DNA of 32,000 nt, taken from contig NZ_LN885086.1 in NCBI RefSeq assembly GCF_001458695.1, forward strand, positions 450,001 through 482,000, in the 5' to 3' direction. A model generated the notes under the pieces. That model saw nothing but the letters and a program-made list of their open reading frames with translations, ran no database searches and was not told the origin of the DNA. Position numbers and translations under genes: made by a program. The DNA is from Candidatus Nitrospira inopinata. Its GTDB lineage: Bacteria; Nitrospirota; Nitrospiria; Nitrospirales; Nitrospiraceae. Shown here piece by piece: positions 1,658-23,569 of the stretch; position 1 is the stretch's first letter, and each line of letters opens with the position of its first letter.

Positions 1658-3100
1658 TTATTTAATACCTTGTCCCGTTGTTCTGGGCATGAACATTTCG
1701 AAGATGCTAGGTTCTCGCTCAGTATAATCAGGCGGGAAGAAGTTGAATCGCCGCCACAATTCATACCACAGCGGAACACGATTCAGAATGACCCAGCCCA
1801 AGACCTTCGTCCCTTGCCGAACCCGTGACTGGTCCGGCCATGGTTGAGAATCTTCCGGGTCCGGCACCACCCAAAATCTAAAATTGCCTTTGCCGTCGTC
1901 AATCTGATCGACGACTCGAATGATGCCGGTCCGAGTGCCCGCCATCAATTCAGGCCATGCCGGCAATGGAATCGCCGGAACCCCGAAGAAGAGAATTTTC
2001 ACCTTTCGCCCCGGCGTCAAGAGCGGGGCGTCCAATCCCTCGGCCCTCATTTCAATCGCAACGTCCTCCGCCTTGGGAGACAGTGTGACGAGCGTCTCTC
2101 CTTGCTTGACAGTTTCCATGATGCCGATCCTTGCCTGCCTGACCACGGTCCCATCCATCGTCGCATAAATCTTGGCCGCATCGATACGTTGTTGATTGTT
2201 CTGTAAGCGCACGGTCACATCCGCCAATTCATCCGCCGCCTTCGCGGCACTTGCAACAGCCTGGTCACGAGCTGCTTCCGCCTCTATCAACCGCTGCCAT
2301 ACCTCGGCGGAGACCTGATCTCGACCAAATGCCAATGCCGACCTTGCTTGTTCAGCAGCCTTGAGATTGGCCTGCGCGGCTTGCAGGGCGGCCTGGGCCG
2401 TCACCTCAGCTTGAATCGTCAACTCAAGTTCCCGTTGGGAAACCAAACCGTCCTTGACGAGCTGTCGGTGCCGATCGACGTTGAGCAGCGCTGTAGTCAA
2501 ATCGATTTTGGCCGCTTCAAGTTTTTGCTGGGCTTCACGCACTCTGTTCTCCGCCTCAACCACCCTCGCGTCGGCAGAAGGAACCGCGGCCTTGACTAAG
2601 TTCCTCATTTCTCCAATCCGCTTATTTAACTGCTCAGCTCTAGCCAGAGCCGCTTCCCGTTGCTGTTGCAGGGCGATCTTTCGCTGCTCCAACAGAGAAA
2701 TGAGTTCTGGCGCCATGAAATTCGGATCATAGTCTTCAAGCTCGGCGATGAGGTCGCCTTTCTTCACCGGCATGCCTTCATAGATGTGCCAGGCCTTCAG
2801 TCGACCGGTGATACGAGACTCTATGTTTTGCGGTCGTTCATATGGCGTGTACGCCGAGACTTTCCCCGTGGCGCTGATCGTCTGCGTCCACGGAACAAAC
2901 TCGACGATAATCAGTATTAGAAGAAGAATGGTTAACGTTACCCGCGATGAGCCGAGTAAACTTCTTGGCACCTTTACGGCCTGCCATGATGACATATTGG
3001 CCACACTGCCCATCATGTCGACATCAGCGGCCGCGATCCCTGGCCCCGGTTGTGATACCACAAGCGATCTTTCTTCTGAATTACCTTGTTGGCGAGCCAT
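1658..3100 (-). CDS. HlyD-family periplasmic adaptor (membrane fusion protein)
   Basis: 480 aa with an ATG start preceded by GGGAGG. It has a short cytoplasmic N-terminus and one TM helix (VTLTILLLILIIVEFV). A barrel-sandwich motif (ITGRLKAWHIYEGMPVKKGDLIAELED) is followed by a coiled-coil of about 200 aa rich in A/Q/E/R, then a C-terminal beta domain. This is the classic HlyD/T1SS adaptor architecture. Confidence 0.85.
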   Translation of the reverse strand: MARQQGNSEERSLVVSQPGPGIAAADVDMMGSVANMSSWQAVKVPRSLLGSSRVTLTILLLILIIVEFVPWTQTISATGKVSAYTPYERPQNIESRITGRLKAWHIYEGMPVKKGDLIAELEDYDPNFMAPELISLLEQRKIALQQQREAALARAEQLNKRIGEMRNLVKAAVPSADARVVEAENRVREAQQKLEAAKIDLTTALLNVDRHRQLVKDGLVSQRELELTIQAEVTAQAALQAAQANLKAAEQARSALAFGRDQVSAEVWQRLIEAEAARDQAVASAAKAADELADVTVRLQNNQQRIDAAKIYATMDGTVVRQARIGIMETVKQGETLVTLSPKAEDVAIEMRAEGLDAPLLTPGRKVKILFFGVPAIPLPAWPELMAGTRTGIIRVVDQIDDGKGNFRFWVVPDPEDSQPWPDQSRVRQGTKVLGWVILNRVPLWYELWRRFNFFPPDYTEREPSIFEMFMPRTTGQGIK

Positions 3101-3139: not shown

Positions 3140-4816
3140 TTACATATGGGCATGATGCAGCATCACACGGCGATCAGCATGATCCGTCAAGTTTGGATCA
3201 GTGGACACAAAAATCACCGACCAAGGTTCTTCTTTCGCACAGAGCCTGCGCAAGATTCTCTCTCGCAGCGATGGTTCTAGACTGTGAATGAGACCGTCGA
3301 AGATCAGAACTTGAGGTCGACCAAGAATAGCCCTCGCAAGAAGGATTTGGACGGCATGACTTGGAGAAATAGCTTCGCCCAGTTCCGAGATATCCGATTT
3401 GATGCCTTGAGGAAGAACATCGATATCTTCTTCGAGTTCTGTAAAACGGAGCGCCCATATAATGTCATCGTACGTAACGTAGGATCGTCCGAGCACGATG
3501 TTGTCTTCGATCGTCCCCTTCAGCAGAGAAAGCTGAGAATCGATCATGACGCTCCGACATTGGCTGAGGACGGTAGGATCGATGTATCGCAAATCAACCC
3601 CATTATATTGGACAACTCCGCTGGTCGGAGCCTCCAACCCGCCCAACACCCTGGCCAACGCCGTTTTTGCCGTGGTGGTACGAGCATAGATCCCAAGCTT
3701 TTCCCCCGGAGCAACATCCAAATTGAAACTATCAAACACAGGCGCTCCGTCATGAACCAGTCCCACGCTTTTACAGGTAACGCGAATCCCCTCATTCAGA
3801 TGTGAGGGCAATGCGACCGTCGACGCAGCGGGAAGCGGATCCCGCTGAAGTGAGAAGAAATCGCTCAGTTCCATGACGGCCGTAAAGAAATAATACACGT
3901 GGCCCATGTTTTTGATCAGTGAGTCAAAATTCAGCACTAACGCGCCAACCACCACTTCGGCGGCCACTAACTGACCGAGAGTCATTTGCCCCTGCGCCAT
4001 CAGCCACCCGGCGAGCGCGAGCGCACCGGCTTGCGCGACTGCTTGCCCGGAGACAGAACCGATGTACTGGCGCAACAAGACCCGAATTCTCGCCTTTCGA
4101 GTTTCGGTGTAGCGGTTAATAAGCTGGTCGGTCTTCTGCATGATCCAGGCGGAACTGTCCGTGGCCTTTAACTGCAAGACATTGCGCGAAATATCCTGCA
4201 TCCAATCGAAGACTTCATACTTGGCCTCGGCCATATCCATCGTCGTCCGCAACGCGCCACGGGAAAGAACAAAAAAGGTGATGGCGAAGCCGACCATCAG
4301 CAGCATGTCGTACACAAGAAAATAGGGGTGATAAATCACCAGCAGGGCCATGCCCACCGTCCCACCCACGACGACATTCACCAAGTCGATGAGGAGCGTG
4401 GACAAGGCACGTTGCATGAACACGATCTCAATAAAGCGATTGGCCGCTTCCGGCCTAAAGCCTTGGAAGCGATAGCGTGGAAGCTGTTGAGCCATGGCAA
4501 TGGCCACCCGAGCAAAGATCCGCCGCTGCACGATTTCAACCGCGTAGAAGTGAAACGTCTTGAACATGCCGACGAATAGCAAGACCGCCAGCATGATGCC
4601 GGTCAATGTCCAAATCATCACGGGCTGAACGGCATAGGAGAAGGTGCTGACGAGTTCTTGAACCGTTAAGGGAACAATAAGGGAGAACAGTCCGATCGCG
4701 AGAGCGTAGGCCAGGATGACGGTGAGCAATTTTTTCTCGACACGCGACCCTACAGAGAGCTGTCTCATCAGTGCTTGAAACAAGTTCGGATAGCTTGAAC
4801 CGTAAAGCTCTTTCAT
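3140..4816 (-). CDS. ABC exporter-fold protein (6-TM domain plus C-terminal NBD) with degenerate ATPase motifs
   Basis: The tracked ORF is 3140-4822 (GTG). I prefer the ATG at 4816 because AGGGGG lies 5 nt upstream. The N-terminal roughly 320 aa contain multiple hydrophobic helices typical of ABC_membrane. The C-terminal roughly 220 aa align by eye to HlyB-type NBDs, but the Walker A, signature, Walker B and H-loop positions are all altered (see findings). There is no N-terminal C39 peptidase or CLD domain. Confidence 0.8.
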   Translation of the reverse strand: MKELYGSSYPNLFQALMRQLSVGSRVEKKLLTVILAYALAIGLFSLIVPLTVQELVSTFSYAVQPVMIWTLTGIMLAVLLFVGMFKTFHFYAVEIVQRRIFARVAIAMAQQLPRYRFQGFRPEAANRFIEIVFMQRALSTLLIDLVNVVVGGTVGMALLVIYHPYFLVYDMLLMVGFAITFFVLSRGALRTTMDMAEAKYEVFDWMQDISRNVLQLKATDSSAWIMQKTDQLINRYTETRKARIRVLLRQYIGSVSGQAVAQAGALALAGWLMAQGQMTLGQLVAAEVVVGALVLNFDSLIKNMGHVYYFFTAVMELSDFFSLQRDPLPAASTVALPSHLNEGIRVTCKSVGLVHDGAPVFDSFNLDVAPGEKLGIYARTTTAKTALARVLGGLEAPTSGVVQYNGVDLRYIDPTVLSQCRSVMIDSQLSLLKGTIEDNIVLGRSYVTYDDIIWALRFTELEEDIDVLPQGIKSDISELGEAISPSHAVQILLARAILGRPQVLIFDGLIHSLEPSLRERILRRLCAKEEPWSVIFVSTDPNLTDHADRRVMLHHAHM

Positions 4817-4868
4817 GAACACCCCCTGTGATTTAAAAATGAGGGATCGGCCTTACCCTCCGGACCCC

Positions 4869-6467
4869 TTAATCACGTCCCTGCAGCTTTCGGCCTGACA
4901 AACCGGCCGCGGTGGCAGGATCACCGTACTTTACCAAAATATTATCGGGCACAGGCTTCGACAGCGCCCCCTTGGCCCACAAATAGCCGCCCCGTGCCAG
5001 GTCGTAATCATATTGTGCTTGATACAGCTCGTAGGCGGCCTCGACGGCGTTTCGCTCCCGTAGATTCACGAACAAGAGACTGGTGATACCCATGTCGAAT
5101 CGCTTCTGCTCACCGGCCAACAGGGTTTGCGCCAATTGATACGCTTCCTTAGCAGCCCTCACGCGGTCCCTGGCCCGCACGATGGCGGATACCCAGTTAT
5201 CAACGTCGAGGCTGACTTTTTGTTCGGCATTCCACAGGTCATACGTCAGTCGTTCTTGCTCGGCCTCTGCATGGGCCACCTTGCCACGGGCTTCCCGGTT
5301 GAACAACGGCATGCTGAGTACGGTTCCCACCCGGTAGCCAAATCCTCCTATCCAATAGATACCGCCGGTCGAACGTCCTCCTTCCAAAGTCAGTTTGGGA
5401 AGCAGTTTGTTCTTGGCCAACTTGAGATCAATGTTATTCATCCTGACGTCGATTGCCAGTTTCCGCACTTCCGGCCGATCTTCCTTGGCGGACACTTTCG
5501 CCTCGACGATTTCGTCTTCGGTCGGCAAGGGTGTTTCCCCCCCAAACTCCGGCGCCCACTCGGGGAGAGGCGTGATTGGTTCCTCCTTCTCCCAAAGGAA
5601 TAGAGACAGTTTGTACTGTTCATATTCCAATTTTCGCTGAGCGGCAATGGCGGCCTCTCGGCGCCGCTGGGCTTCTTGACCAGCTTCCACCACATCCAGT
5701 GGCGAGACCAATCCCGCCTTGGCTTGTCCTTCAATGAAAGCCAGCCGATCCTCTGCAACCCGCAACGCCTGTTTTTGAACATCAGCCTGCTTGACCGCAA
5801 GCTGCCAGTCCCAGTACTGTACGGCCCCGGCCAAGAAGAGATCTTGCCGAGTCTGAGCCACTTTCACCTCGGCCAGCGGCCCCGCGAGTTCGGCCTGCTG
5901 AAACTCAGCAAACTCATCGTTGATCATGAAGCCGCGCAGGAGATTGAATTCTCCACCAAAGATGGCCATTTGATTTGGGTAAAAAAGTTCGAGATCCTCA
6001 GGGAACGCCACAGGCCCTCCATGGGGAACACGAAAGATCGCCCCTGAGCTCGAAATCGTGGCCCGATCCCCAAAGCCATGGCGGATGCCGCCGAAAATAT
6101 TGAACCCATAGGGGTGCCCGACCTTGAGCATCGTATCGCTATAACCTCCCGTCAAGGTATTGGGCACACCTTGAACGTTCGTCAGATTCCACGTTTGAAA
6201 TCGGTCGACCTCAACCTCATTCTTTAGCTTTGGCTCCCACGCGCTCAACGCTTTCAGGACCTTTGCTCGAGCCTGCGCCCGCTCCAATCCGGTTGCGCGG
6301 ATCAGCGGGTGGGTCAACTCAATTCTGGCCAGCACCTCTTCAATGGTCAGCGGAGCGGTTCGCATCGGAGCCTGCCTCGATGATCCCATGGCCGTTGGGG
6401 CCTCAGCCAGGACGGTCACTGGTATCCAGACCAACGAGACTAACAACACTACCAACAAAGCGATCAC
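4869..6467 (-). CDS. TolC-family outer-membrane channel protein, paralog 1
   Basis: 532 aa with a GTG start preceded by GGGAG. The signal peptide MIALLVVLLVSLVWIPVTVLA/EAP contains no lipobox Cys. There are two long helical repeats rich in A/Q/E/R separated by short beta segments, as in the outer-membrane efflux protein family. It is about 60-70% identical by eye to the two upstream paralogs. Confidence 0.85.
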   Translation of the reverse strand: MIALLVVLLVSLVWIPVTVLAEAPTAMGSSRQAPMRTAPLTIEEVLARIELTHPLIRATGLERAQARAKVLKALSAWEPKLKNEVEVDRFQTWNLTNVQGVPNTLTGGYSDTMLKVGHPYGFNIFGGIRHGFGDRATISSSGAIFRVPHGGPVAFPEDLELFYPNQMAIFGGEFNLLRGFMINDEFAEFQQAELAGPLAEVKVAQTRQDLFLAGAVQYWDWQLAVKQADVQKQALRVAEDRLAFIEGQAKAGLVSPLDVVEAGQEAQRRREAAIAAQRKLEYEQYKLSLFLWEKEEPITPLPEWAPEFGGETPLPTEDEIVEAKVSAKEDRPEVRKLAIDVRMNNIDLKLAKNKLLPKLTLEGGRSTGGIYWIGGFGYRVGTVLSMPLFNREARGKVAHAEAEQERLTYDLWNAEQKVSLDVDNWVSAIVRARDRVRAAKEAYQLAQTLLAGEQKRFDMGITSLLFVNLRERNAVEAAYELYQAQYDYDLARGGYLWAKGALSKPVPDNILVKYGDPATAAGLSGRKLQGRD

Positions 6468-6491
6468 GAAGGATACTCCCTTGTTGTCGAA

Positions 6492-8057
6492 TTAATCGCG
6501 TCCAGACTTTTTGTAACCGTTCTTTCCTGCCGCCGTCAGAGGATCTCCATATTTCGCCAACACCACATCCCCTACCGGCTTCGACAAAGCCCCCCTCGCC
6601 AAGAGAAGGCCGCCCCGCGCCAAATCGTAATCGTACCGCGCTTGATAGAGTTCAAATGCCGCCTCAACGGCATTCTGTTCTCGCATATTCACAAATAAAA
6701 TACTGGAGATTCCCATATCGAATCGTTTCCTCTCTCCCTCTTCCAGCGCCTTGGCCAATCGGTAGGCTTCCGTCGCCGCCCTCACGCGGTCCCTGGCCCG
6801 CACAATGGCCGAGAGCCAGTTGTCCACATCGATGCTCACTTGCTGTTCAGCATACACTTGGCTCAAGACCAACTGTTGTTGCTCCGCCTCCGCATACAGA
6901 ACCTTCCCCCGGCCCTCCCGTTGGAAGAGCGGCATAGCAAACTGTGTCGCATAGCGATATCCCACGCCTACGATCCAGTCCGCAGGCGCATCCATTCGCC
7001 CTCCCTCAAAATCAAACTTGGGAAGCAAGTAGTTCTTAGCAAGTTTGAGATCGATGTTGTTCATCTTGGCTTCAATGTACAGGGCCCGCACCTCCGGCCG
7101 ATCTTCCTTCGCCTCCACTTTATAGGCTGCAATCTCTTCCTCGGTCGGCAGCGGCGTTTCGCCCTGAAATTCAGGCGCCCACTCCGGTCTCGGCGTCACA
7201 GGCTCGCCGTTCTCCCAGAGAAACAGCGACAATTTGTACTGCTCAAGCTCCACCTTCCGTTGCGCGGCTATGGCCGCCTCCCGCCGGCGTTGAACTTCCT
7301 GACCGATCTCGACCACATCGAGCGGCGACACCTTGCCCGCCTTGGCCTGCCCCTCAATCTGCTCAAAGCGAGCTTCCGCCACCGCCAAATTCTGCTTCCG
7401 CACCTCGGCCTGCTTGACCGCAAGTTGCCAATCCCAATACTGAATGGCGCCTGCGAGGTAGAGATCCTGCCGTTTCTGCGCTACCTTCACCTCCGCGAGT
7501 GGTCCCGCCAATTCGGCCTGCTGGAACTCGGCGTACTCATCATTGACCATCAACCCGCGCAGCAGATGGACAGAGCCACCCACAATAATCTGTTGCTGAG
7601 GATAGAAAAGCTGGAGATCAGGAATGAGCGCAACCGTCCCTCCCGATTGAGGAGGGGTCCCGACTATGCTGCGATCTCCAAAGCCGTTGCGGATGCCGCC
7701 CAGAATTCGGAAGCCCCAAGGGTGCCCCACTTCCAGCTTGGTATCGTTAAATCCTCCCGTCGAAACATGATCGTAAGCCAAGAAGTTCCAAATTTGGATG
7801 CGCGCGGTTTCTGTAATGTTCTTAACTGTCGGCTCCCATGCCCCGAGCGCCTTCAAGATTTTTGCCCGGGCCTGCTTCCGTTCAACTCCGGTCGCTCGAA
7901 GCAGGGGATGGGTCAACTCGATTCTGGCAAGGACTTCTTCGATAGTAAGCGGAGCAGTGCGCGTCTGCTGAAGCCGCACGATTCCTCCGTCTCCCCCCGA
8001 TTCCGCCAGCGTCACCACCGGAGACAAGATGAAAATCGCGAAAAAGAGAGCGATCAT
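6492..8057 (-). CDS. TolC-family outer-membrane channel protein, paralog 2
   Basis: The tracked ORF 6492-8111 overlaps the stop of paralog 3. I place the start at the ATG at 8057 (MIALFFAIFILSPVVTLA/ESG), by analogy with the MIAL N-termini of the other two copies and a GAAGG motif upstream. The domain pattern matches paralog 1. Confidence 0.85.
   Translation of the reverse strand: MIALFFAIFILSPVVTLAESGGDGGIVRLQQTRTAPLTIEEVLARIELTHPLLRATGVERKQARAKILKALGAWEPTVKNITETARIQIWNFLAYDHVSTGGFNDTKLEVGHPWGFRILGGIRNGFGDRSIVGTPPQSGGTVALIPDLQLFYPQQQIIVGGSVHLLRGLMVNDEYAEFQQAELAGPLAEVKVAQKRQDLYLAGAIQYWDWQLAVKQAEVRKQNLAVAEARFEQIEGQAKAGKVSPLDVVEIGQEVQRRREAAIAAQRKVELEQYKLSLFLWENGEPVTPRPEWAPEFQGETPLPTEEEIAAYKVEAKEDRPEVRALYIEAKMNNIDLKLAKNYLLPKFDFEGGRMDAPADWIVGVGYRYATQFAMPLFQREGRGKVLYAEAEQQQLVLSQVYAEQQVSIDVDNWLSAIVRARDRVRAATEAYRLAKALEEGERKRFDMGISSILFVNMREQNAVEAAFELYQARYDYDLARGGLLLARGALSKPVGDVVLAKYGDPLTAAGKNGYKKSGRD
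7045..7361 (-). repeat. 317-bp tract in TolC paralog 2, 316/317 identical to 8636-8952
   Basis: Direct comparison of the two stretches at a 1591-nt offset finds one mismatch (7253 C versus 8844 T). Flanking coding DNA of the same paralogs is only about 75-80% identical. Confidence 0.9.
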
Positions 8058-8082
8058 ATAATACGCCTTCGTTGCGGAATGA

Positions 8083-9636
8083 TTAATCACGTCCCGGCTG
8101 CTTGTACCCATTCATCCCCGCCGCAGTCAGAGGGTTTCCATACTTGACCAACACGGTGTCCGCCACCGGTTTCGACAAGGCTCCTATAGCCCAGAGGAGG
8201 CCGCCGCGTGCCACGGCATAGTCGGCTTGCGCCCGATACAATTTATAGGCTGTGTCCACAGCGTTGCGTTCCCGCAAGTTGACAAAGAGAATGCTTGACA
8301 GCCCCAGATCGAACCGCTTGCGCTCGCCCTCCTCCAATTCCTTGGCCAACCGGTATGATTCTGTAGCGGCTCTAACCCTGTCCCTGGCTCGCACGATCGC
8401 CGAGAGCCAATTGTCCACATCGAAGCTGACTTGCTGCTCGGTATATTGCTGCTTCAAGGCCAATTGCGCCAATCCCACCTCTGCTCCCATGACCTTCCCG
8501 CGGCCCTCCCGCTGGAACAGCGGCATTTCGAAATGAAGCCCGGTCCGGTAGCCGACTCCTACAATCCAGTCTGTAGCACCCTCGGTTGGCCCTCCTTCGA
8601 GGACCAATTTCGGCAGCAGTTTGTTTTTGGCCAGCTTGAGATCGATGTTGTTCATCTTGGCTTCAATGTACAGGGCCCGCACCTCCGGCCGATCTTCCTT
8701 CGCCTCCACTTTATAGGCTGCAATCTCTTCCTCGGTCGGCAGCGGCGTTTCGCCCTGAAATTCAGGCGCCCACTCCGGTCTCGGCGTCACAGGCTCGCCG
8801 TTCTCCCAGAGAAACAGCGACAATTTGTACTGCTCAAGCTCCATCTTCCGTTGCGCGGCTATGGCCGCCTCCCGCCGGCGTTGAACTTCCTGACCGATCT
8901 CGACCACATCGAGCGGCGACACCTTGCCCGCCTTGGCCTGCCCCTCAATCTGTTGATATCGAGCTTCGGCCACCGCCAGCGCCTGCTTCTGAACCTCCGC
9001 CTGCTTGACCGCCACCTGCCAATCCCAGTATTGGACGGCCCCCGCCAGATAGAGATCCTGCCGTTTCTGGGCCACCTTCACCTCCGCGAGCGGCCCAGCC
9101 AGTTCGGCCTGCTGGAACTCAGCGTTCTCTTCGTTGATGATCAAGCCACGCAAAAGTTGGAACGATCCGCCGAGAATAAGTTGCTGCTGAGGATAGAACA
9201 GTTGGAGATCGGGGATAATAGCAATAAAATTCTGGTTACCTCGATCCCCCATTCCATTTCGAATCCCGCCAACAACCTGGAACCCCCAGGGATGCCCCAC
9301 CTGGATTTTGGTGTCGTTAAATCCCCCAGTGTGGATCTTCGGTAAGAAGGGAGATGTCGTGAGATTCCACGTTTCATACCGTTCAATCTCTGTAATATTC
9401 TTGAGCGTGGGCTCCCAGGCTCCGAGCGCTTTCAGAACCTTCGCGCGAGCCTTCATTCGCTCGGCTCCGGTCGCCTGAAGCAGGGGGTGGGTCAACTCGA
9501 TTCTGGCGAAGACTTCTTCAATCGTGAGAGGAGCGGTGCGGGTGGCCTGATTCTGCGCGGTCCTCGAATCGCTTACCGGTTCCGCCAGTGCGATCATCGG
9601 CGTCGAGATGAGCACGACCAGCAGCAGGGCGATCAC
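8083..9636 (-). CDS. TolC-family outer-membrane channel protein, paralog 3
   Basis: The tracked ORF runs to 9801, but the first 55 codons are basic and low-complexity. A GTG at 9636 lies 7 nt after AAAGGAG and gives (M)IALLLVVLISTPMIALA/EPV, matching the other two paralogs. This start leaves a normal divergent intergenic region with the LysR gene. Confidence 0.8.
   Translation of the reverse strand: MIALLLVVLISTPMIALAEPVSDSRTAQNQATRTAPLTIEEVFARIELTHPLLQATGAERMKARAKVLKALGAWEPTLKNITEIERYETWNLTTSPFLPKIHTGGFNDTKIQVGHPWGFQVVGGIRNGMGDRGNQNFIAIIPDLQLFYPQQQLILGGSFQLLRGLIINEENAEFQQAELAGPLAEVKVAQKRQDLYLAGAVQYWDWQVAVKQAEVQKQALAVAEARYQQIEGQAKAGKVSPLDVVEIGQEVQRRREAAIAAQRKMELEQYKLSLFLWENGEPVTPRPEWAPEFQGETPLPTEEEIAAYKVEAKEDRPEVRALYIEAKMNNIDLKLAKNKLLPKLVLEGGPTEGATDWIVGVGYRTGLHFEMPLFQREGRGKVMGAEVGLAQLALKQQYTEQQVSFDVDNWLSAIVRARDRVRAATESYRLAKELEEGERKRFDLGLSSILFVNLRERNAVDTAYKLYRAQADYAVARGGLLWAIGALSKPVADTVLVKYGNPLTAAGMNGYKQPGRD
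8636..8952 (-). repeat. 317-bp tract in TolC paralog 3, 316/317 identical to 7045-7361
   Basis: Partner of the 7045-7361 tract. It encodes the shared peptide ...GQAKAGKVSPLDVVEIGQEVQRRREAAIAAQRK.ELEQYKLSLFLWENGEPVTPRPEWAPEFQGETPLPTEEEIAAYKVEAKEDRPEVRALYIEAKMNNIDLK... Confidence 0.9.
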
Positions 9637-9787
9637 GAGGATGCTCCTTTCGTATGTATGTCGCGTGTGTCTCTGGCGCGGCGGGAGAGTAGCAATCACG
9701 GCCCTTTTATGAAAAATAGATAAAACGGATTGGAATCTTCGTGAAAGACGATGTATAGTGGATGCGCCACTTTTCGACGCAAACCGT

Positions 9788-10684
9788 ATGGAATGGCTCA
9801 ACTATCACCATTTGCTGTACTTTTGGTCCGTCGCCAAGCACGGCACGGTCGCTAAGGCTTGCGAGGAGCTTCGCCTCGCTCAGCCGACCATCAGCGGACA
9901 GATCCGGCTCCTGGAACAATCCTTGGGGGAAAAATTGTTCGTGCGCACGGGACGCCGACTCGCGTTGACCGAGATGGGACACGTGGTGTTCGGATACGCG
10001 GAAGCCATCTTCGCCATGGGGCAAGAGTTGCTGAACACGGTGAAAGGACGTGCGGAGGGGCACCAGGCACGCCTGGTCGTCGGCATCGCCGACGTCGTGC
10101 CCAAACCGCTGGCGAATCATCTTCTCCGAGCGGGACTAAACTTGGATCAGCCCATGCACTTGGTTTGCCAAGAGGACAAACTGCATCGGCTCCTGGCCGA
10201 CTTGACGATGCACCGATACGACCTTGTCATCTCCGACACGCCCGCGCCGCCGAACTTCAAGGTGCACGCCTACAGCCACCCCATCGGCGAATCGGGGGTG
10301 ACGTTCTTCGGCACGTCGAAATTGGCATCGCTTTATCGGCGTGAGTTTCCTCGGTCACTGCACGGCGCCCCGATGCTCCTGCCTACCGCCGATGCAGCCC
10401 TTCGCCGATCGATCGATCAATGGTTGGTCCACCACCGCCTCCACCCCACCATCGTGGGCGAGTTCGACGACAGCGCGACGCTCAAGGCCTTTGGGCAGGA
10501 GGGATTCGGCATTTTCCCCGGCGTGACCGCAATGGAAAAGGAAATCTGCCGCCAATATAGGGTCTCGGCCATCGGCAAGCTGGATTCCGTCAAACAGCAC
10601 TTTTATGCGATCACCGTCGAGCGCCGTCTCAAACATCCGGCGGTGCTGGCGATCGTCCAAGCGGCCCGACGGGAGCTGGACTGA
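9788..10684 (+). CDS. LysR-family transcriptional regulator, NhaR-like
   Basis: The tracked ORF starts at 9758. The ATG at 9788 gives MEWLNYHHLLYFWSVAKHGTVAKACEELRLAQPTISGQIRLLEQSLGEKLF. That closely parallels the E. coli NhaR N-terminus (INYNHLYYFWHV...QTITGQIRALEE..GKLF) and the later GEFDDSA.LKAFG and HPAV motifs. It is divergent from the TolC/ABC/HlyD operon. Confidence 0.85.
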   Translation: MEWLNYHHLLYFWSVAKHGTVAKACEELRLAQPTISGQIRLLEQSLGEKLFVRTGRRLALTEMGHVVFGYAEAIFAMGQELLNTVKGRAEGHQARLVVGIADVVPKPLANHLLRAGLNLDQPMHLVCQEDKLHRLLADLTMHRYDLVISDTPAPPNFKVHAYSHPIGESGVTFFGTSKLASLYRREFPRSLHGAPMLLPTADAALRRSIDQWLVHHRLHPTIVGEFDDSATLKAFGQEGFGIFPGVTAMEKEICRQYRVSAIGKLDSVKQHFYAITVERRLKHPAVLAIVQAARRELD

Positions 10685-11481: not shown

Positions 11482-12432
11482 TTACAAGGCGGGAGATGAC
11501 TCGCGAACAAGCTTTGCGGCCTTGATGCGGCCGAGCATGCGATAGATCAACCGAGCCACCGAAAACTGGGGGGCCACAAACCCGTCAATAGGGGTCATTT
11601 CACTTACGTCCATCCCCACGATACCGGGGCCTCCGGCGAGGGCGGCGACCAGATTCAGCGTGTCGTACCAGCCCAACCCGCCCGGCTCGGGAGTGCCCAG
11701 CGCGGGAACGATGGAAGGATCAAGCCCATCGCAGTCGAACGTAAGATACACCGGGCCGTTGCAAGCGGCCACGACGTCGGGAATCCATCGGGAGGCCTGC
11801 CCGCCGTAGGGGCCGGAGGGATCCAAGAGGCTTGCGGCGAAAAACGTGGTGATCCGGTCCGTCGCCTTCATTCGAATCATCTCTTCCCCGCTGATCGACC
11901 GTATGCCGACCTGGACCAACGGATGCCCGTCCTCCACCACCCTGGCCATGACGCTGGCGTGGCTGAACGGGTTGCCTTGGTAGGCCTCGCGCAGATCGCC
12001 GTGCGCGTCAATCTGCACGACGCACATGTTCGGATGGCGCCGGGCGTGGGCGCGGATGGCTCCCAATGCGCCGGTATGTTCCCCGGTCAACGTCACGAGA
12101 AATCGCCCGGCCTCGACGTGCGGACGAACGAACTGCTCGATGGCGGCGACGGCGGCCCGATCTACTTCGCCTTTCAGATCCAGAGCCGACGCCGTGGCAA
12201 TACCGCCCCACTCACGAAAGGGTTCACATTCAAGTTGCTCATCATACAGCTCGACCTGGCGGGATGCTTCAAGAATGGCGGAGGGGCCGTGATCCGATCC
12301 TCGGACATAGCTGGACGTATGTTCGTACGGAACCGGCAGGACGTAGACACCGGCCCGATCCGGATGGCACCACGGTTCTTCGAGGCCGAGAAAATTGTGC
12401 TCCGGCCCTTCCCATCCGGCTGGCAACGTCAT
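11482..12432 (-). CDS. speB: Agmatinase (arginase/ureohydrolase family)
   Basis: The tracked ORF extends to 12753, but its first 107 codons are R/S-rich and overlap the pdaD coding region. The ATG at 12432 gives MTLPAGWEGPEHNFLGLEEP... The Mn-binding ureohydrolase motifs are present: GGEHT-like (LTGEHTGALG), QIDAHGDL and FDCDGLDPS. Confidence 0.85.
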   Translation of the reverse strand: MTLPAGWEGPEHNFLGLEEPWCHPDRAGVYVLPVPYEHTSSYVRGSDHGPSAILEASRQVELYDEQLECEPFREWGGIATASALDLKGEVDRAAVAAIEQFVRPHVEAGRFLVTLTGEHTGALGAIRAHARRHPNMCVVQIDAHGDLREAYQGNPFSHASVMARVVEDGHPLVQVGIRSISGEEMIRMKATDRITTFFAASLLDPSGPYGGQASRWIPDVVAACNGPVYLTFDCDGLDPSIVPALGTPEPGGLGWYDTLNLVAALAGGPGIVGMDVSEMTPIDGFVAPQFSVARLIYRMLGRIKAAKLVRESSPAL

Positions 12433-12490
12433 GGCATGCGTCCTTATTATCAAGCCCTGGTCAAACTGAAGCGTCAGAACGGCGCGCCCG

Positions 12491-13060
12491 CTATCGGCGA
12501 TACCGCTTGGCCACGTTCTCGCCCGGAATGAAGACCGCGAGCGCGATGACCGTCGTCCACTTGCCGGCCTTGCCGATCGCCGACTGAGTGATGTTCGACG
12601 TTTTGACGATTTTGCCGCCCATCTTAAACACTTGCTCGCGCTCCTTCCAGGCGACGTTGGGATCAAATTCCAACCCCAGCGTAGTGGCCAACATCTGAGC
12701 CGCGAGATCTTCCGTGTACTCGCCGGTTTCCTCGTCCGTCTCGCCGTGGGCATGGTGTTCGGACAAGTAGCCGTAGCTGTTCCGGTCCGTCGGTTTCGCC
12801 AGACCGACCGAGGCCGAAATCAACCGATTCCGTTCGTTGGTTTCGGAACGGGCCATCACGCAGAACGTGATTTCCCCGGGACTCAACAGTTTCTCCCCCC
12901 GATTCCGCGAGATGATTTTGCAATTGGGCGGCAAAATGGACGACACGCTGACGAGATTGCAGTAGGCAACCCCCGCGCTTCGCAACGCCTCCTCGAAAGA
13001 GGCCAGTTTCTCCTTGTGCACGCCCACTCCTCTCGTCAAAAACATGTGCGTCGGTACCAT
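12491..13060 (-). CDS. pdaD: Pyruvoyl-dependent arginine decarboxylase (PdaD family)
   Basis: 189 aa with an ATG preceded by GGGAG. The pattern [24 protein letters not shown] matches the PdaD self-cleavage region (the Ser-Ser site that generates the pyruvoyl group). It sits immediately upstream of agmatinase. Confidence 0.75.
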
Positions 13061-13233
13061 GTGTGCTCCCTCTCTTGGTGATTGAGTCGCCCGGGCTTTC
13101 GAGCTGTCGGCGGGGCTTGCGCGGATCTCCGGCCCTCAGTCATCCGAATCAGAATCGGTTCCCGTACAAAGCGTGCTCTTGTATCAAGATTGATTCCGCT
13201 TCGCAATATCCTGAAACAATTTTTACAATTTTC

Positions 13234-14676
13234 TTAGGCCGAAGGGTCCGGGGCCTGGGCATTCACGATCAGCAGCTTCGGCTCCGTCATCTCTTCAATG
13301 GCGGCCCGCACGCCCTCGCGTCCCAACCCGGAATCCTTGACGCCGCCGTACGGCATATGGTCGGAACGGAACGTCGGGATTTCGTTGGCAAGCACGGCTC
13401 CGACTTCCAGATGGCGAAACGCATAAAAGACTTTGTTGATATCCCGCGTAAACACGCCGGCCTGGAGCCCGTAGTCCGATTGATTGAGCATGGCGATCGC
13501 CTCGCCGAACCGGCTGTACGGCGTCACCGTCACCACGGGGCCGAACACCTCCTGACAGGACACTTTCATGTCCGGTTTCACGTCCGACAAGACGGTCGCC
13601 TCGATCACCGATCCCATCCGTTTCCCCCCCAGCAACACACGGGCCCCTTCCGCCACGGCTTCATTGATCCAGCTTTCGACGCGATGGGCTGCGGCGTGAT
13701 CGATCAACGGCCCGATGGTCGTCGTGTCGTCCGTGGGGTCTCCGGCCTTCAACCTCGCGACGTGCATGAGCAACTTCGTCGTAAATGGATCCGCCACCGC
13801 CTGATGCACGAACACCCGCTGGACGGAAATGCAAGTCTGCCCCGCGTAACCGAACCCGCCGGCGGCGCATCGCCGGGCCGCCAAATCAAGATCGGCGTCC
13901 GGTTCGACGATCACCCCCGCATTGCCTCCCAGTTCCAACACGACCTTCTTTTTGCCGCACTTCGCCTTGAGCATCCAGCCCACCGCAGCGCTGCCGGTAA
14001 AACTCAGGAGCTTAAACCGAGGATCAACGACCAACCGCTCCGCCAACAGGTTGTCGCAGGGCACGACGTTGAGCCCGCCGGGGGGGAGCCCGGCTTGCAA
14101 GGCGATTTCCCCCAGCAACAACGCGGTGAGCGGCGTTTGGGGAGCCGGTTTGATGAGAATCGGATTGCCCGCGGCCAACGCCGGCGCCACCTTGTGAGCG
14201 ACCAAGTTGAGTGGAAAATTAAACGGCGTGATGCCGAGAACGGGCCCGATGGGAAACCGCCTGAGGATACCCACGTGGGCATCGGACCCCGGTGTCCAAT
14301 CCAAGGGAACGACTTCGCCGGCGATTCGTCGGGATTCCTCGGCCGCCACCGTAAAGGTTTGCACCGCCCGATCAACTTCCCGTTTGGCGTCCGTGATCGG
14401 TTTGCCCGCTTCGGCGGTGATCGTGGAGGCGATTTCATCCCGGCGTTGAGAAAGGAGGGCGGCGATCTGTTGCAGGATCTTATACCGGGCGTGTCCCGGC
14501 ATACCCGCCATCACGGGCGCGGCTTCAACCGTGGAGGCGATCGCCTCTTCGAGATCGTTCTCCGAAGCTTGGGAGACGGTGGCGACGGTCCGGCCGGTAA
14601 ATGGATCAATGACCGTTGTCGTTCGATCGCTTTGCTTCCATTGGCCGTGAAGGAGAAAGGGGCGCGATTGCTGCAC
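13234..14676 (-). CDS. NAD(P)+-dependent aldehyde dehydrogenase
   Basis: 480 aa with a GTG start. ALDH hallmarks are present: VVLELGGNAG (catalytic Glu motif), GYAGQTCISVQRVFV (catalytic Cys motif), FTGSAAVG, and EEVFGPV-like (QEVFGPVV). Confidence 0.85.
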   Translation of the reverse strand: MQQSRPFLLHGQWKQSDRTTTVIDPFTGRTVATVSQASENDLEEAIASTVEAAPVMAGMPGHARYKILQQIAALLSQRRDEIASTITAEAGKPITDAKREVDRAVQTFTVAAEESRRIAGEVVPLDWTPGSDAHVGILRRFPIGPVLGITPFNFPLNLVAHKVAPALAAGNPILIKPAPQTPLTALLLGEIALQAGLPPGGLNVVPCDNLLAERLVVDPRFKLLSFTGSAAVGWMLKAKCGKKKVVLELGGNAGVIVEPDADLDLAARRCAAGGFGYAGQTCISVQRVFVHQAVADPFTTKLLMHVARLKAGDPTDDTTTIGPLIDHAAAHRVESWINEAVAEGARVLLGGKRMGSVIEATVLSDVKPDMKVSCQEVFGPVVTVTPYSRFGEAIAMLNQSDYGLQAGVFTRDINKVFYAFRHLEVGAVLANEIPTFRSDHMPYGGVKDSGLGREGVRAAIEEMTEPKLLIVNAQAPDPSA

Positions 14677-17158: not shown

Positions 17159-17236
17159 TGGTGGTCCCAACGGGATTCGAACCCGTGTTTAAGCCTTGAG
17201 AGGGCTCCGTCCTAGGCCAGGCTAGACGATGGGACC
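17159..17236 (-). tRNA. tRNA-Glu (anticodon CUC), CCA encoded
   Basis: The minus strand reads GGTCCCATCGTCTAGCCTGGCCTAGGACGGAGCCCTCTCAAGGCTTAAACACGGGTTCGAATCCCGTTGGGACCACCA. It folds as a cloverleaf with a 7-bp acceptor stem, the GTTCGAATC T-loop and the anticodon loop CTCTCAA. It resembles E. coli tRNA-Glu. Confidence 0.9.
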
Positions 17237-18747: not shown

Positions 18748-20448
18748 ATGACGACGCCGGACTCGACAGCCCCCTCGGACTTCATACGCGACATCATTGC
18801 AGCGGATCGAGCGGCCGGCAAGCATGGCGGCAGGGTCGTGACCAGGTTTCCTCCTGAGCCCAACGGCTATCTCCACATCGGCCATGCCAAGTCGATCTGC
18901 TTGAACTTCGGCATCGCCCTGGAAAATCCAGGAGGCCGGTGCCACCTGCGGCTCGACGACACCAACCCCACAACCGAAGACCCAGAATATGTCGCGGCCA
19001 TTCAAGAGGACATCAGGTGGCTGGGGTTTGATTGGAATGGCCATCTCTTTTATGCCTCGGACTATTTTGAGCAGCTCTATCAGTTCGCCGTCACGCTCAT
19101 TAAAAAAGGCAAGGCTTATGTGGACAGCCTCTCGGCCGACGAAATCCGCGCCTATCGCGGGACGTTGACCGAACCGGGACGGGAGAGTCCATATCGGAAC
19201 CGTTCGGTCGAAGAGAATTTGGACCTATTCGCCCGCATGAGAGCCGGTGAGTTTCCCGACGGCGCTCATGTCTTACGCGCCAAGATCGACATGGCCTCGC
19301 CCAACATCAATCTCCGCGACCCGGTGCTCTATCGCATCCGGCATGTCGCCCATTACCGGACAGGCACTGCGTGGTGCATCTATCCCTCTTATGATTTCGC
19401 CCATCCACTCTCCGATGCCATCGAGGGGATCACCCATTCCATTTGCACACTGGAATTTGAAGACCATCGCCCGCTGTACGATTGGGTGGTGGCCGAGGCC
19501 GAAGCCCCCCATCGGCCCCGGCAAATCGAGTTTGCCCGCTTGAATCTGAGCGGCACCGTGATGAGCAAACGCCGCCTGCTCGAGCTGGTGGACAAACGTC
19601 TGGTCGCCGGCTGGGATGATCCTCGACTGCCGACCCTCAAGGGCCTTCGCCGCCGAGGCGTCCCCCCCGAAGCCATCCGCGCCTTTTGCGAACACATCGG
19701 GGTGGCCAAGCGGGATGCCGTCGTGGAGATGCAGCTCTTTGAACACTTCATCCGTGAAGATTTAAACCGTCGTGCCCCGCGGGTCATGGCGGTGCTCAAG
19801 CCGCTCAAACTGATCATCGACAACTATCCGGAACAGCTCGTGGAGGAACTGGACGCCGTCAATAATCCGGAAGACCCCTCGGCGGGAACCAGAAAGGTTC
19901 CCTTCTCTCGAGAACTGTACATTGAGCAGGACGACTTTCGGGAAGACCCGCCCAAACAGTTCTTCCGTCTCGCGCCGGGGCGGGAAGTGCGGCTGCGCTA
20001 CGCCTATATCGTCAAGTGCGTGGGCGCCACGAAAGACCCGAGCACTGGCCAGGTGACCGAGGTGCACTGTGTGTATGATCCGGACACGAAGGGGGGATCC
20101 TCGCGAGACCAGCGGAAAGTGAAGGCGACGATCCATTGGGTGTCGGCGGCCCACGCCGTTCCGGCGGAGGCGCGCCTGTACAACCAATTGCTCACCTGTG
20201 ACCTCAACGAGATCCCCGACAACGAGGAATGGACCAAGTATCTGAATCCCCATTCCCTCGAACGATTGACCCGCTGCCTGGTTGAGCCAGGGCTGCGACA
20301 GGCCCCCCTTGGAGCCCGATTTCAATTTGAGCGGCAAGGGTACTTCTGCGTGGACCCTGACTCGTCGACGGACCGGCCGGTCTTCAATCGAACCGTCTCT
20401 CTCAAGGACACCTGGGCCAAGGTCGAAAGGGCTCAACAACAGCGGTGA
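18748..20448 (+). CDS. glnS: Glutamine--tRNA ligase (GlnRS)
   Basis: 566 aa. The N-terminus [48 protein letters not shown] is nearly co-linear with E. coli GlnRS. The HIGH motif and the VMSKR (KMSKS) motif are present. Confidence 0.95.
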
Positions 20449-21902: not shown

Positions 21903-21976
21903 AGGAGGATAATGGCTGGGGGACTAGGAATCGAACCTAGGTAGCCAGCTCCAAAGGCTGGCGTCCTACCGCTAGA
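21903..21976 (-). tRNA. tRNA-Gln (anticodon UUG), CCA encoded
   Basis: The minus strand reads TGGGGGATCGTCTAGCGGTAGGACGCCAGCCTTTGGAGCTGGCTACCTAGGTTCGATTCCTAGTCCCCCAGCCA. The anticodon loop is CTTTGGA. U1-A72 and G73 match E. coli tRNA-Gln. Confidence 0.9.
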
Positions 21977-22037
21977 CGATCCCCCAGCGTCGTTGATGCA
22001 ATTATGGATGGCGAAGCCGAACGCTTTCTTCGATGAT

Positions 22038-22111
22038 TGGCTGGGGGACTAGGAATCGAACCTAGGTAGTCAGATCCAGAGTCTGACGTCCTACCGCTAG
22101 ACGATCCCCCA
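22038..22111 (-). tRNA. tRNA-Gln (anticodon CUG), CCA encoded
   Basis: The minus strand reads TGGGGGATCGTCTAGCGGTAGGACGTCAGACTCTGGATCTGACTACCTAGGTTCGATTCCTAGTCCCCCAGCCA. The anticodon loop is CTCTGGA. It is identical to the UUG isoacceptor except for 5 positions in the anticodon arm. Confidence 0.9.
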
Positions 22112-22147: not shown

Positions 22148-23569
22148 TCAAGCCTGGCCCCGTTTCGCTCGCTCCACCCCCTGCTGAAGCCGCCACAGGA
22201 CCCGTTCTTTGCCCAACACCTCCATCACCTCGAACAAGCCCGGACTGGCGGATCGACCGGTGAGGGCGACGCGGACCGGTTGGGCCAGTTGCCCCATTTT
22301 TATCCCTTCCTCTTGGACAAGTTGCTTGAAACACTGTTCCCACTCGGTTTTGGAGAACGTTGGCAAGGCGGAGAACCGCTCGATCAATCGGCCCAGAACC
22401 GGGGCAATAGCCGGCGTGAGAAACTTGTTCGCCGCCTCCTCGTCGTGCGGGACCGACTGTCCGAAATAGGGTTTGACCCACTCGACCATCTCGACGAGCG
22501 TCTTGGTTCGCTCTCTGACCAACACAACCAATTGAGCCAGCCAGTCAGCCGAGGCCTGCTTGACCTGCTCTCCCAGACCGGCCTGCTCCAAAAAAGGAAC
22601 CAACAGGGTGGCCACTCGCTCGGGCGGACTGGTTTTGATGTATTCGGCGTTCATCCAGAGCAGTTTGTCGGGGTTAAAGACCGCCGCCGATTTTTGCACG
22701 TGGTCCCATGAGAACTTCTGGATCAGCTCTTCTCGTGTAAAGAGTTCTTGATCGCCATGGGACCATCCGAGGCGGGCCAGATAGTTGATCATGGCCTCCG
22801 GCAGGTATCCCATGTCTTTATAGGCCATGATGGAGGTCGCGCCGTGCCGTTTCGACAGCCTCGTCTTGTCCGAACCGAGAATCATCGGTAAATGGCCGAA
22901 GCGAGGCACGAGGAACCCGAGCGCCTGGAAGATCGGGACTTGGCGCGGCGTGTTGGTCAGATGGTCGTCGCCGCGCACGACATGGGTGATCCCCATCAGC
23001 GCATCATCGACGACCACGGAAAAATTATAGGTCGGATACCCGTTGGACCGCAGAATGATGAGGTCGTCCAGCACCGCATTGTCAAACACGACCGTGCCCT
23101 TGATCAGATCATCCACCAGGGTCTGCCCGGACTGCGGCGCCTTGAACCGCAACGCCGCCTCCGAGGTGGGATGCATAATGCCTCGCTCGCGGCAGCGGCC
23201 GTCATAACGTGGGGATAGGCCCTTGGCCTCTGCTTCCCTGCGTCGGGCCTCCAGTTCTTCAGGCTTGCACACGCACCAGTAGGCTTGCCCTTTTTCCAGG
23301 AGCTGGAAGGCATATTGTCGATGGAGGTCCATCCGTTCCGTTTGCCGAAACGGTCCCTCGTCCCAATCGAGTCCAACCCATCGCATGCCTTCCAGGATCG
23401 CCTGGATCGACTCTTCGGTCGAGCGGCTTTGGTCCGTATCTTCAATACGCAAAATGAACGTCCCCCCCTGCTGGCGGGCATACAGCCAATTGAACAGTGC
23501 CGTCCGGACTCCTCCGATATGGAGAAAGCCCGTCGGACTGGGAGCGAATCGAACACGGACCTTGGTCAT
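22148..23569 (-). CDS. gltX: Glutamate--tRNA ligase (GluRS)
   Basis: 473 aa. The N-terminus is VRVRFAPSPTGFLHIGGVRTALFNWLYARQQGGTFILRIEDTDQSRS. The KLSKRHG (KMSKS) motif and a Zn-binding-like segment CVC...RYDGRCR are present. Confidence 0.95.
   Translation of the reverse strand: MTKVRVRFAPSPTGFLHIGGVRTALFNWLYARQQGGTFILRIEDTDQSRSTEESIQAILEGMRWVGLDWDEGPFRQTERMDLHRQYAFQLLEKGQAYWCVCKPEELEARRREAEAKGLSPRYDGRCRERGIMHPTSEAALRFKAPQSGQTLVDDLIKGTVVFDNAVLDDLIILRSNGYPTYNFSVVVDDALMGITHVVRGDDHLTNTPRQVPIFQALGFLVPRFGHLPMILGSDKTRLSKRHGATSIMAYKDMGYLPEAMINYLARLGWSHGDQELFTREELIQKFSWDHVQKSAAVFNPDKLLWMNAEYIKTSPPERVATLLVPFLEQAGLGEQVKQASADWLAQLVVLVRERTKTLVEMVEWVKPYFGQSVPHDEEAANKFLTPAIAPVLGRLIERFSALPTFSKTEWEQCFKQLVQEEGIKMGQLAQPVRVALTGRSASPGLFEVMEVLGKERVLWRLQQGVERAKRGQA

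Follow-up and report, generated by a model that had tools for sequence, protein, structure and literature searches.

A minus-strand gene at positions 3140-4816 of a 32,000-nt stretch of the Candidatus Nitrospira inopinata genome (contig NZ_LN885086.1, positions 450,001 to 482,000; hereafter the window, in which all coordinates are counted) encodes an ATP-binding cassette (ABC) half-transporter of the exporter type that we call ABC*. Its nucleotide-binding domain (NBD) departs from consensus at the Walker A Gly residues, the signature, the catalytic Glu and the H-loop His. The replacements are conserved among the Nitrospira orthologues, the gene is under purifying selection, and its operon, which also encodes a membrane fusion protein (MFP) and TolC-like outer-membrane factors (OMFs), has no partner ABC gene within the 8-10 kb that we inspected on each side. 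Judged from these residues, ABC* has probably lost ATPase activity, and we rate as about even the chances that it is a non-hydrolytic homodimer serving as a gated entrance, in the inner membrane, to an MFP-TolC duct. The gene and its two domains are as follows.

ABC* gene, 3140-4816, minus strand: full-length type-I ABC exporter half-transporter (transmembrane domain followed by NBD), 558 amino acids plus stop, with a non-canonical NBD; based on the open reading frame (ORF), orthologues, PF00005, the AlphaFold2 (AF2) model, Foldseek and dN/dS.
Transmembrane domain (TMD), 3851-4783, minus strand: six long helices, residues 12-322; based on AF2, a weak PF00664 match and near-invariant polar residues.
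Degenerate NBD, 3158-3784, minus strand: residues 345-553; based on Pfam, phmmer, AF2, orthologue conservation and dN/dS.

The maximal ORF extends from 3140 to a GTG at 4822. The start is most likely the ATG at 4816, which is preceded by AGGGGG and corresponds to the ATG at which the orthologues begin. The AF2 model obtained with a 140-sequence alignment has a pLDDT of 89.2 and a pTM of 0.81; it replaced an earlier, unusable model built from only 32 Nitrospira orthologues (pLDDT 60.7). The TMD is predicted to consist of helices at residues 9-60, 65-114, 129-162, 166-211, 222-274 and 280-321, and the NBD model shows a strand-loop-helix at 373-392, the place of Walker A, and a helix that runs from the signature position (485-497). 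Over its whole length the model best matches HlyB of the HlyB/D complex among the Protein Data Bank (PDB) structures searched with Foldseek (8dck_A, TM-score 0.86). It superposes on the PCAT1 core with TM-scores of 0.88-0.89 and on TmrAB with 0.88, and the set that includes Sav1866 spans 0.83-0.89. By this predicted fold, ABC* is a complete type-I ABC exporter scaffold, in keeping with the proposal of the initial annotation that TMD and NBD are retained in an uninterrupted ORF (pLDDT 89.2, TM-scores of 0.86-0.89).

Profile scores place the protein at the margin of the known families. The Pfam model PF00005 (ABC_tran) matches residues 364-509 with 34.4 bits (cut-off, 25), and relatives with an intact Walker A score 51-106 bits (P0129-P0134, P0150, P0173 and P0217). 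PF00664 (ABC_membrane) stays under threshold at 14.8 bits against a cut-off of 28; the six-helix exporter TMD is supported by the AF2 fold. Neither Pfam nor AF2 gave any C39 peptidase or C39-like N-terminal domain, the TMD beginning at about residue 12. The best NCBIfam matches are models of NHLP-bacteriocin exporters, TIGR03797 (131 versus a cut-off of 709) and TIGR03796 (128 versus 853); those of the HlyB, PrtD and LssB exporters also score far under their cut-offs (TIGR01846, 103/726; TIGR01842, 101/510; TIGR03375, 120/693). No curated family covers the Nitrospira ABC* clade.

The register of the NBD motifs was taken from phmmer alignments to the solved structures of ABCB4 and ComA, from the HMM and from AF2 superposition, and all coordinates were checked by direct translation. 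The positions below, which had originally been assigned by eye, agree with all of these; each rests on phmmer and the orthologues.

Walker A position, 3662-3685, minus strand: ARTTTAKT in place of GxxGxGK[ST], with all three Gly lost and Lys-Thr kept.
Q-loop, 3533-3541, minus strand: DSQ (D426-S427-Q428), kept, with the register shifted by one residue.
Signature position, 3356-3370, minus strand: ISPSH in place of LSGGQ.
Walker B, 3293-3310, minus strand: VLIFDG, with Asp507 kept and Gly508 in place of the catalytic Glu.
D-loop position, 3275-3292, minus strand: LIHSLE, with an invariant His511.
H-loop position, 3194-3211, minus strand: FVSTDP, with Thr or Asn in place of His.

In the alignments, ARTTTAKT falls on GSSGCGKS of ABCB4 and GASGSGKT of ComA, ISPSH on LSGGQ/ISGGQ (the clade-wide pattern being [LI][SA]P[TSG]H), VLIFDG on ILLLDE/VLILDA, HSLE of the D-loop on the canonical SALD, and FVSTDP on FVAHRL. 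The substitutions that had been read from the sequence at Walker A, the signature and Walker B, the last of them Glu to Gly, are thereby borne out, as is the loss of the H-loop His near 3200, where Thr539 is encoded at 3200-3202. The broader statement that every catalytic motif is degenerate holds for the Walker A Gly residues, the catalytic Glu, the His and the signature, but not for Lys384-Thr385 of Walker A, Asp507 of Walker B and Gln428 of the Q-loop. Mg2+ and phosphate are normally ligated by these four side chains, which are kept in ABC* and invariant in the 117 orthologues described next. Likewise, the Q-loop Gln had been called shifted at best; it is indeed one residue out of register but is retained, and DSQ is invariant.

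A protein search gave 120 ABC* orthologues that are 60-99% identical and mostly 554-558 amino acids long, and those that carry a source name all come from Nitrospira, Nitrospiraceae or Nitrospirota. Motif conservation was counted over the 117 full-length sequences, which derive from many assemblies. A canonical Walker A, Walker B Glu, H-loop His or SGGQ was found in none of them (0/117 each), and the substitutes are fixed or nearly so, which answers a question raised by the initial annotation. At the Walker A place A378, T380 and K384 are present in 117/117 and A383 in 116/117; at the signature place P485 is present in 115/117 and H487 in 111/117. F506-D507-G508 of Walker B is found in every sequence, H511 is invariant or nearly invariant, and at the H-loop place S538 and P541 are universal, D540 occurs in 116/117, and residue 539 is T in 74 and N in 43. 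The mean entropy of the NBD is 0.67, whereas that of DSQ is 0, that of the H-loop 0.24 and that of Walker B 0.38.

Selection was estimated by the Nei-Gojobori method from one pair, ABC* and a 96%-identical orthologue (L004), for which dS is about 0.5-0.7, an unsaturated level. The dN/dS ratio of the whole gene is 0.035; taken separately, the TMD has 0.041 and the NBD 0.016. Purifying selection is therefore heavier on the NBD than on the TMD, and the initial suggestion of a gene held by purifying selection rather than a pseudogene is upheld. The NBD is the better conserved half within the Nitrospira clade (71.6% identity versus 67.8% for the TMD). Among the residues that are invariant or nearly so in the NBD are C348, H355, H487, H511 and C526 (window 3140-3800), which could form a metal or ligand site. 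In the TMD the polar residues R99, Q135, K199, Y200, R240, Q250, Q282 and E287 are near-invariant family-wide.

ABC* is transcribed from a minus-strand operon that holds three TolC-like genes, ABC* and an HlyD-like gene, separated by gaps of 24-52 nt or overlapping, with Shine-Dalgarno-like sequences. Together with the divergent regulator gene, the neighbors of ABC* are as follows.

MFP of the HlyD type, 1658-3100, minus strand: 480 amino acids; PF13533 and PF13437, with TIGR01843 (type_I_hlyD) as the best NCBIfam match, below cut-off.
TolC-like OMF, paralogue C, 4869-6467, minus strand: PF02321, 126.9 bits; signal-peptide-like N-terminus.
TolC-like OMF, paralogue B, 6492-8111, minus strand: PF02321, 128.5 bits; 69-74% identical to the adjoining paralogues.
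TolC-like OMF, paralogue A, 8083-9801 as maximal ORF, minus strand: PF02321, 121 bits.
LysR-family regulator, divergent, 9758-10684, plus strand: PF00126 and PF03466.

The MFP gene lies 39 nt downstream of ABC*. Its product has a cytoplasmic N-terminus and one transmembrane anchor, read from the sequence as RVTLTILLLILIIVEFVPW. The true start of TolC paralogue A probably lies further downstream, given that the L002 orthologue has 516 amino acids. The MFP, OMF and ABC* trio is conserved across Nitrospira (L001, L002 and L004-L006) despite differing gene order and TolC number: the order is MFP-OEP-ABC* in L001 and three OEP genes, ABC* and MFP in L002 and L004. The operon is thus intact, as had been stated from the window, and syntenic across Nitrospira. 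The LysR gene is syntenic with it in several lineages and also stands beside clusters of the wider family (L002, L004, L010 and L091). When each GTDB species was scanned through one genome, 322 loci proved to encode a relative, the best 80 of which are all from Nitrospira, Nitrospiraceae or Nitrospirota.

The three tandem TolC/OEP paralogues upstream of ABC* (4869-9801, minus strand) are 66-74% identical to one another, and their number varies by Nitrospira lineage, with one in L001, at least two in L006, where the contig ends, and three in L002 and L004. They might provide heterotrimeric or alternative outer-membrane channels. In L001, a lineage of 61% identity, a 258-amino-acid sensor-type protein resembling TarH/4HB_MCP chemoreceptors is encoded directly after the cluster (L001:11680-12456), replacing the LysR arrangement.

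In an ABC dimer, one NBD supplies Walker A, Walker B and the H-loop to each ATP site, and the opposite NBD supplies the signature and D-loop (PMC7756269). Because ABC* is degenerate in both of the half-sites that it contributes, no dimer containing ABC* can form a consensus ATP site, as the initial annotation had reasoned from the sequence for homodimer and heterodimer alike. The motif losses, taken together with the strict keeping of the four Mg2+ and phosphate ligands, argue for a site that would no longer hydrolyze ATP and yet remains in use, perhaps by binding a ligand or by coupling NBD to NBD and NBD to TMD. We propose that ABC* would be the inner-membrane subunit of a tripartite, envelope-spanning conduit of the HlyB/HlyD/TolC type, a conserved core feature of Nitrospira. 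The NBD would have been remodelled to a non-hydrolytic domain in which the three P-loop Gly, the catalytic Glu and the H-loop His, as well as the SGGQ clamp, have given way to other, fixed residues. ABC* would act as a homodimer, its NBDs working not as a motor but as a gate that dimerises or senses a ligand and is coupled to the TMDs, and the substrate would move through the MFP-TolC duct by means other than ATP hydrolysis at the ABC* sites, for example down its own gradient or by the proton-motive force.

Several points weigh against this proposal. The retention of Lys384, Thr385, Asp507 and Gln428 means that nucleotide could still bind and perhaps be slowly hydrolyzed. A canonical partner may be encoded beyond the inspected 8-10 kb flanks. 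Finally, no residue of ABC* could be tied to proton coupling: we considered Glu287 in TM6 as a coupling residue specific to the clade with dead NBDs and rejected it, since this Glu is near-invariant in canonical relatives too.

One alternative scenario is that ABC* pairs, as the non-catalytic half, with a canonical partner whose gene lies elsewhere in the genome. In such a heterodimer one impaired working site, built from Walker A, Walker B and the H-loop of the partner and ISPSH of ABC*, would drive transport. Many members of the wider family are canonical, as described below, and our inspection covered 8-10 kb on each side of the gene. In the characterized bacterial heterodimers TM287/288, TmrAB, BmrCD, IrtAB and CydDC, however, the two genes adjoin. 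We compared the NBD of ABC* and two canonical NBDs by tblastn with 90 fetched loci, which comprise 82 distinct places with an orthologue of the Nitrospira clade (L001-L006 and L011-L090, duplicates counted once). A canonical ABC gene was found within 8-10 kb at none of these 82 loci, although gene order around ABC* is reshuffled, and no partner ABC gene appeared among the window ORFs of at least 150 amino acids. The only additional NBD is a second copy of the degenerate family itself in a Nitrospira metagenome-assembled genome (L047:3-206), 66% identical and placed some 8 kb upstream of the principal one, which suggests a duplicated cluster. Given that no partner gene is linked, ABC* is most likely a homodimer. 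Heterodimeric exporters in which one site is degenerate occur commonly (PMC7756269), which speaks for a heterodimer, but known degenerate subunits retain one canonical half, whereas the degenerate signature and D-loop of ABC* would spoil the sole site that could work. We consider a heterodimer unlikely.

An exhaustive HMMER search, in which a profile of the Nitrospira sequences was run against 1.84 billion representatives, found only three close full-length clusters, P0121-P0123 (683, 641 and 583 bits; 42-46% identical). They are also degenerate, and P0122, with CETETVRH at Walker A, is even without the Walker A Lys. Scores then fall to 369 bits, where a large set of HlyB/PCAT-like proteins of 550-860 amino acids begins; its nearest members score 315-369 bits against the Nitrospira profile, are about 30% identical and have TMD motifs in common with it. 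In sequence terms the Nitrospira clade is a long-branch offshoot of this uncurated HlyB/PCAT-like family. NCBI labels the family 'peptidase domain-containing ABC transporter', no tested member scores as high as an NCBIfam cut-off, and Pfam gives no domain in the 170-260-amino-acid N-terminal extension of the long relatives. A profile of the wider family retrieves thousands of proteins, with named sources mainly in the Planctomycetota (Paludisphaera, Schlesneria and Gemmataceae) and Myxococcota (Archangium and Polyangium).

Among the matches to the Nitrospira profile, a set biased to degenerate sequences, Walker A, Glu and His are all intact in 19/122 (16%). Among the top matches to the wide-family profile, 71/114 (62%) are fully canonical and Walker A is intact in 99/114. 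We had considered that the whole wider family might be non-catalytic and dropped this idea in view of the 71 canonical sequences obtained with the less biased profile. Loss of the catalytic Glu is nevertheless recurrent in the aligned sequences of the family. One coherent subclade, 'LLLIDG...TGR', has an intact Walker A, a Walker B of the form L[LV][LVI]IDG and mostly xTGRx at the H-loop, so that the catalytic Glu and the His are both lost; its members are P0296, P0326, P0346, P0355, P0357, P0368, P0369, P0390, P0393, P0396, P0398 and P0399. The four wider-family contexts that we fetched (L010, L091, L092 and L093) all contain a single ABC gene with an MFP gene, joined by an OMF gene in L010, L091 and L093, L092 showing ABC and MFP only, and in two of the four the ABC protein is without the catalytic Glu. 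L093 (P0368) and L010 (P0129, with DG at Walker B and the His kept) are both clusters of a single ABC gene with MFP and OEP genes, and a LysR gene is a neighbor in L010 and L091. The usual pattern in ABC exporters is an NBD more conserved than the TMD; the wider family is reversed, with 45.7% identity in the TMD versus 36.5% in the NBD. A neighbor-joining tree, drawn to order the motif losses, was set aside, as its midpoint root fell between the Nitrospira-like clade and all else and gave no resolution.

Another scenario, which we judge to be just as doubtful as a heterodimer, is that ABC* no longer transports and instead has a scaffolding role, structural or regulatory, in nucleating or anchoring MFP-TolC, for example in envelope tethering or signalling. 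Pseudoenzymes frequently turn into scaffolds, the presence of three TolC paralogues in tandem hints at the outer-membrane part as the component that has been elaborated, and the 4HB_MCP chemoreceptor-like protein follows ABC* in one lineage (L001). Yet the TMD is also heavily constrained (omega, 0.041), and R99, Q135, K199, Q250, Q282 and E287 are kept and are near-invariant in relatives with and without canonical ATPase motifs. Because these polar residues are common to the canonical relatives, we suggest that a TMD function shared with them has been maintained.

A slightly less probable scenario is that ABC* binds and hydrolyzes ATP or another nucleoside triphosphate in an unorthodox site, made of His487, His511, Asp540 and Ser538 together with Lys384, Thr385, Asp507 and Gln428. 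Nowhere in the NBD is conservation higher than at the former active-site positions, as the entropies of 0, 0.24 and 0.38 against the mean of 0.67 show, and the Mg2+ and phosphate ligands are all kept. Such an enzyme would have to work with every P-loop Gly replaced (A..T.AKT) and with Gly, which has no side chain, at the place of the general base; the sister cluster P0122 is without the Walker A Lys too. In the AF2 model, weak evidence in this respect, the Walker A helix starts at residue 381 and leaves a loop of three residues. For decay, whether of a pseudogene or in a single strain, and for an artefact of sequencing or assembly, nothing speaks except the non-canonical motifs themselves; these readings have a negligible chance and are excluded by the low dN/dS (omega of about 0.016-0.041) of an uninterrupted ORF and the same fixed motifs in 117 independent orthologues, with relatives in 322 GTDB species genomes.

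Returning to the non-hydrolytic homodimer, we put forward a more far-reaching version, and do so tentatively. ABC*-MFP-TolC may be a natural exporter that works without ATP hydrolysis within a type-1-secretion-like tripartite machine. Either a gradient or the proton-motive force would drive it as a secondary transporter, or it would be a channel gated by a ligand. It would then be a natural counterpart of LmrA-MD, the NBD-less LmrA described below, and the extreme of a broader, hitherto unrecognized tendency in the HlyB-like family to lose the catalytic Glu and His in single-ABC tripartite clusters. What makes this worth pursuing is that characterized ABC exporters, including all those with a degenerate site that one review covers (PMC7756269), keep at least one consensus ATP site, whereas ABC* is degenerate in both half-sites and has no linked partner. 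ABC* is also among the best-conserved genes of its operon across Nitrospira, which includes key nitrite oxidisers and the comammox bacteria. The questions raised are what powers the tripartite conduit and what role the NBD now plays. If ABC* works without hydrolysis, it offers a natural test system for the long-debated view of ABC membrane domains as intrinsic secondary transporters, and the labels 'ATP-binding cassette domain-containing' and 'bacteriocin exporter' misstate its energetics. If it still turns over ATP, it represents new active-site chemistry on the ABC fold.

The window shares about 99% identity with Nitrospira sp. JZ-3_Bin7. The neighbors of the operon that have a Pfam match are housekeeping genes (purE, rluB-like, agmatinase, GlnRS, GluRS and dnaK), several larger ORFs having no match. 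No RTX-type or other substrate gene was recognized near the operon by Pfam among the larger window ORFs, small ORFs not having been analyzed systematically. Scans of the window for Rfam families, tRNAs, promoters and terminators gave nothing tied to the operon. A polyamine-type module at 11482-14676 (minus strand) contains a gene of the arginase/agmatinase family, an ORF resembling pyruvoyl-dependent arginine decarboxylase (12491-13060) and an aldehyde dehydrogenase gene, with synteny to the operon in both L001 and L002. For agmatinase, the maximal ORF has 423 amino acids versus 310 in orthologues, and its true start is probably further downstream. Two distant Nitrospira lineages have a gene of the MbnB/TglH/ChrH family (PF05114) at some 10 kb from the cluster (L001:1-709 and L002:21110-21680). 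Elsewhere in the window, the GlnRS and GluRS genes are found near two tRNA-Gln genes and one tRNA-Glu gene (17159-17236, 18748-20448, 21913-22111 and 22148-23569). A 369-amino-acid ORF at 28818-29927 (minus strand), antisense within dnaK (28296-30125, plus strand), matches PF10712, 'NAD-specific glutamate dehydrogenase', at 2.5e-86; it most likely belongs to the known antisense-of-dnaK artefact family rather than being a gene.

Compared with known systems, ABC* clearly belongs to the ABC exporter fold and to a tripartite architecture like that of the type I secretion system (T1SS). It resembles HlyB-HlyD-TolC, the T1SS of E. coli (PDB 7SGR/8DCK), in its type-I exporter fold (8dck_A, TM-score 0.86) and in being co-encoded with a membrane-anchored HlyD-type adaptor and TolC-family channels. 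Unlike HlyB, it is without an N-terminal C39-like domain, scores 103 against the 726 of TIGR01846, has a non-canonical Walker A, catalytic Glu, H-loop His and signature, and has no substrate gene recognized nearby among the larger window ORFs. PCAT1/ComA and the 'peptidase domain-containing ABC transporter' proteins are the nearest family in sequence, the PCAT1 core superposing with a TM-score of 0.88-0.89. Those of Planctomycetota and Myxococcota likewise occur in single-ABC clusters with an MFP (4/4), an OMF (3/4) and a LysR neighbor (L010 and L091). ABC* differs from this family in having no N-terminal domain of 170-260 amino acids, and most of the family has an intact Walker A (99/114). 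A module of SecA_DEAD, HlyD and M50 proteins that we considered (PMC4452313) proved to be a different system from the ABC* operon, and our literature search turned up neither a description of the ABC* family nor an account of any exporter in which both sites are degenerate.

The degenerate sites of TM287/288, TmrAB, TAP1/2, CFTR and Pdr5 (nucleotide-binding site 1, NBS1) are like those of ABC* in that the Walker B Glu, the H-loop His and the signature are substituted, and Pdr5 NBS1 is the extreme, in which the Walker A Lys is substituted too (PMC7756269). All of the transporters described in that review keep one consensus site, and in their degenerate sites the Gly-rich P-loop is generally intact and ATP is still bound tightly (PMC7756269). 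ABC*, in contrast, is degenerate in both half-sites, has lost all of the P-loop Gly and has no linked partner within the flanks inspected.

For transport without ATP, the relevant comparison is with membrane domains of the ABC exporter type that can run ion-coupled. SbmA is a relative of the ABC-type BacA and is driven by the proton-motive force, and MsbA and LmrA have reportedly been the subject of studies of proton-coupled transport. LmrA-MD, which is LmrA without its NBD, acts as a secondary transporter that is homodimeric and coupled to protons (PMC2704374). This protein is a truncation made by engineering, however, and SbmA is without an NBD; if the analogy holds, ABC* would be the natural case, in which a remodelled and strongly conserved NBD has been kept within a tripartite system.

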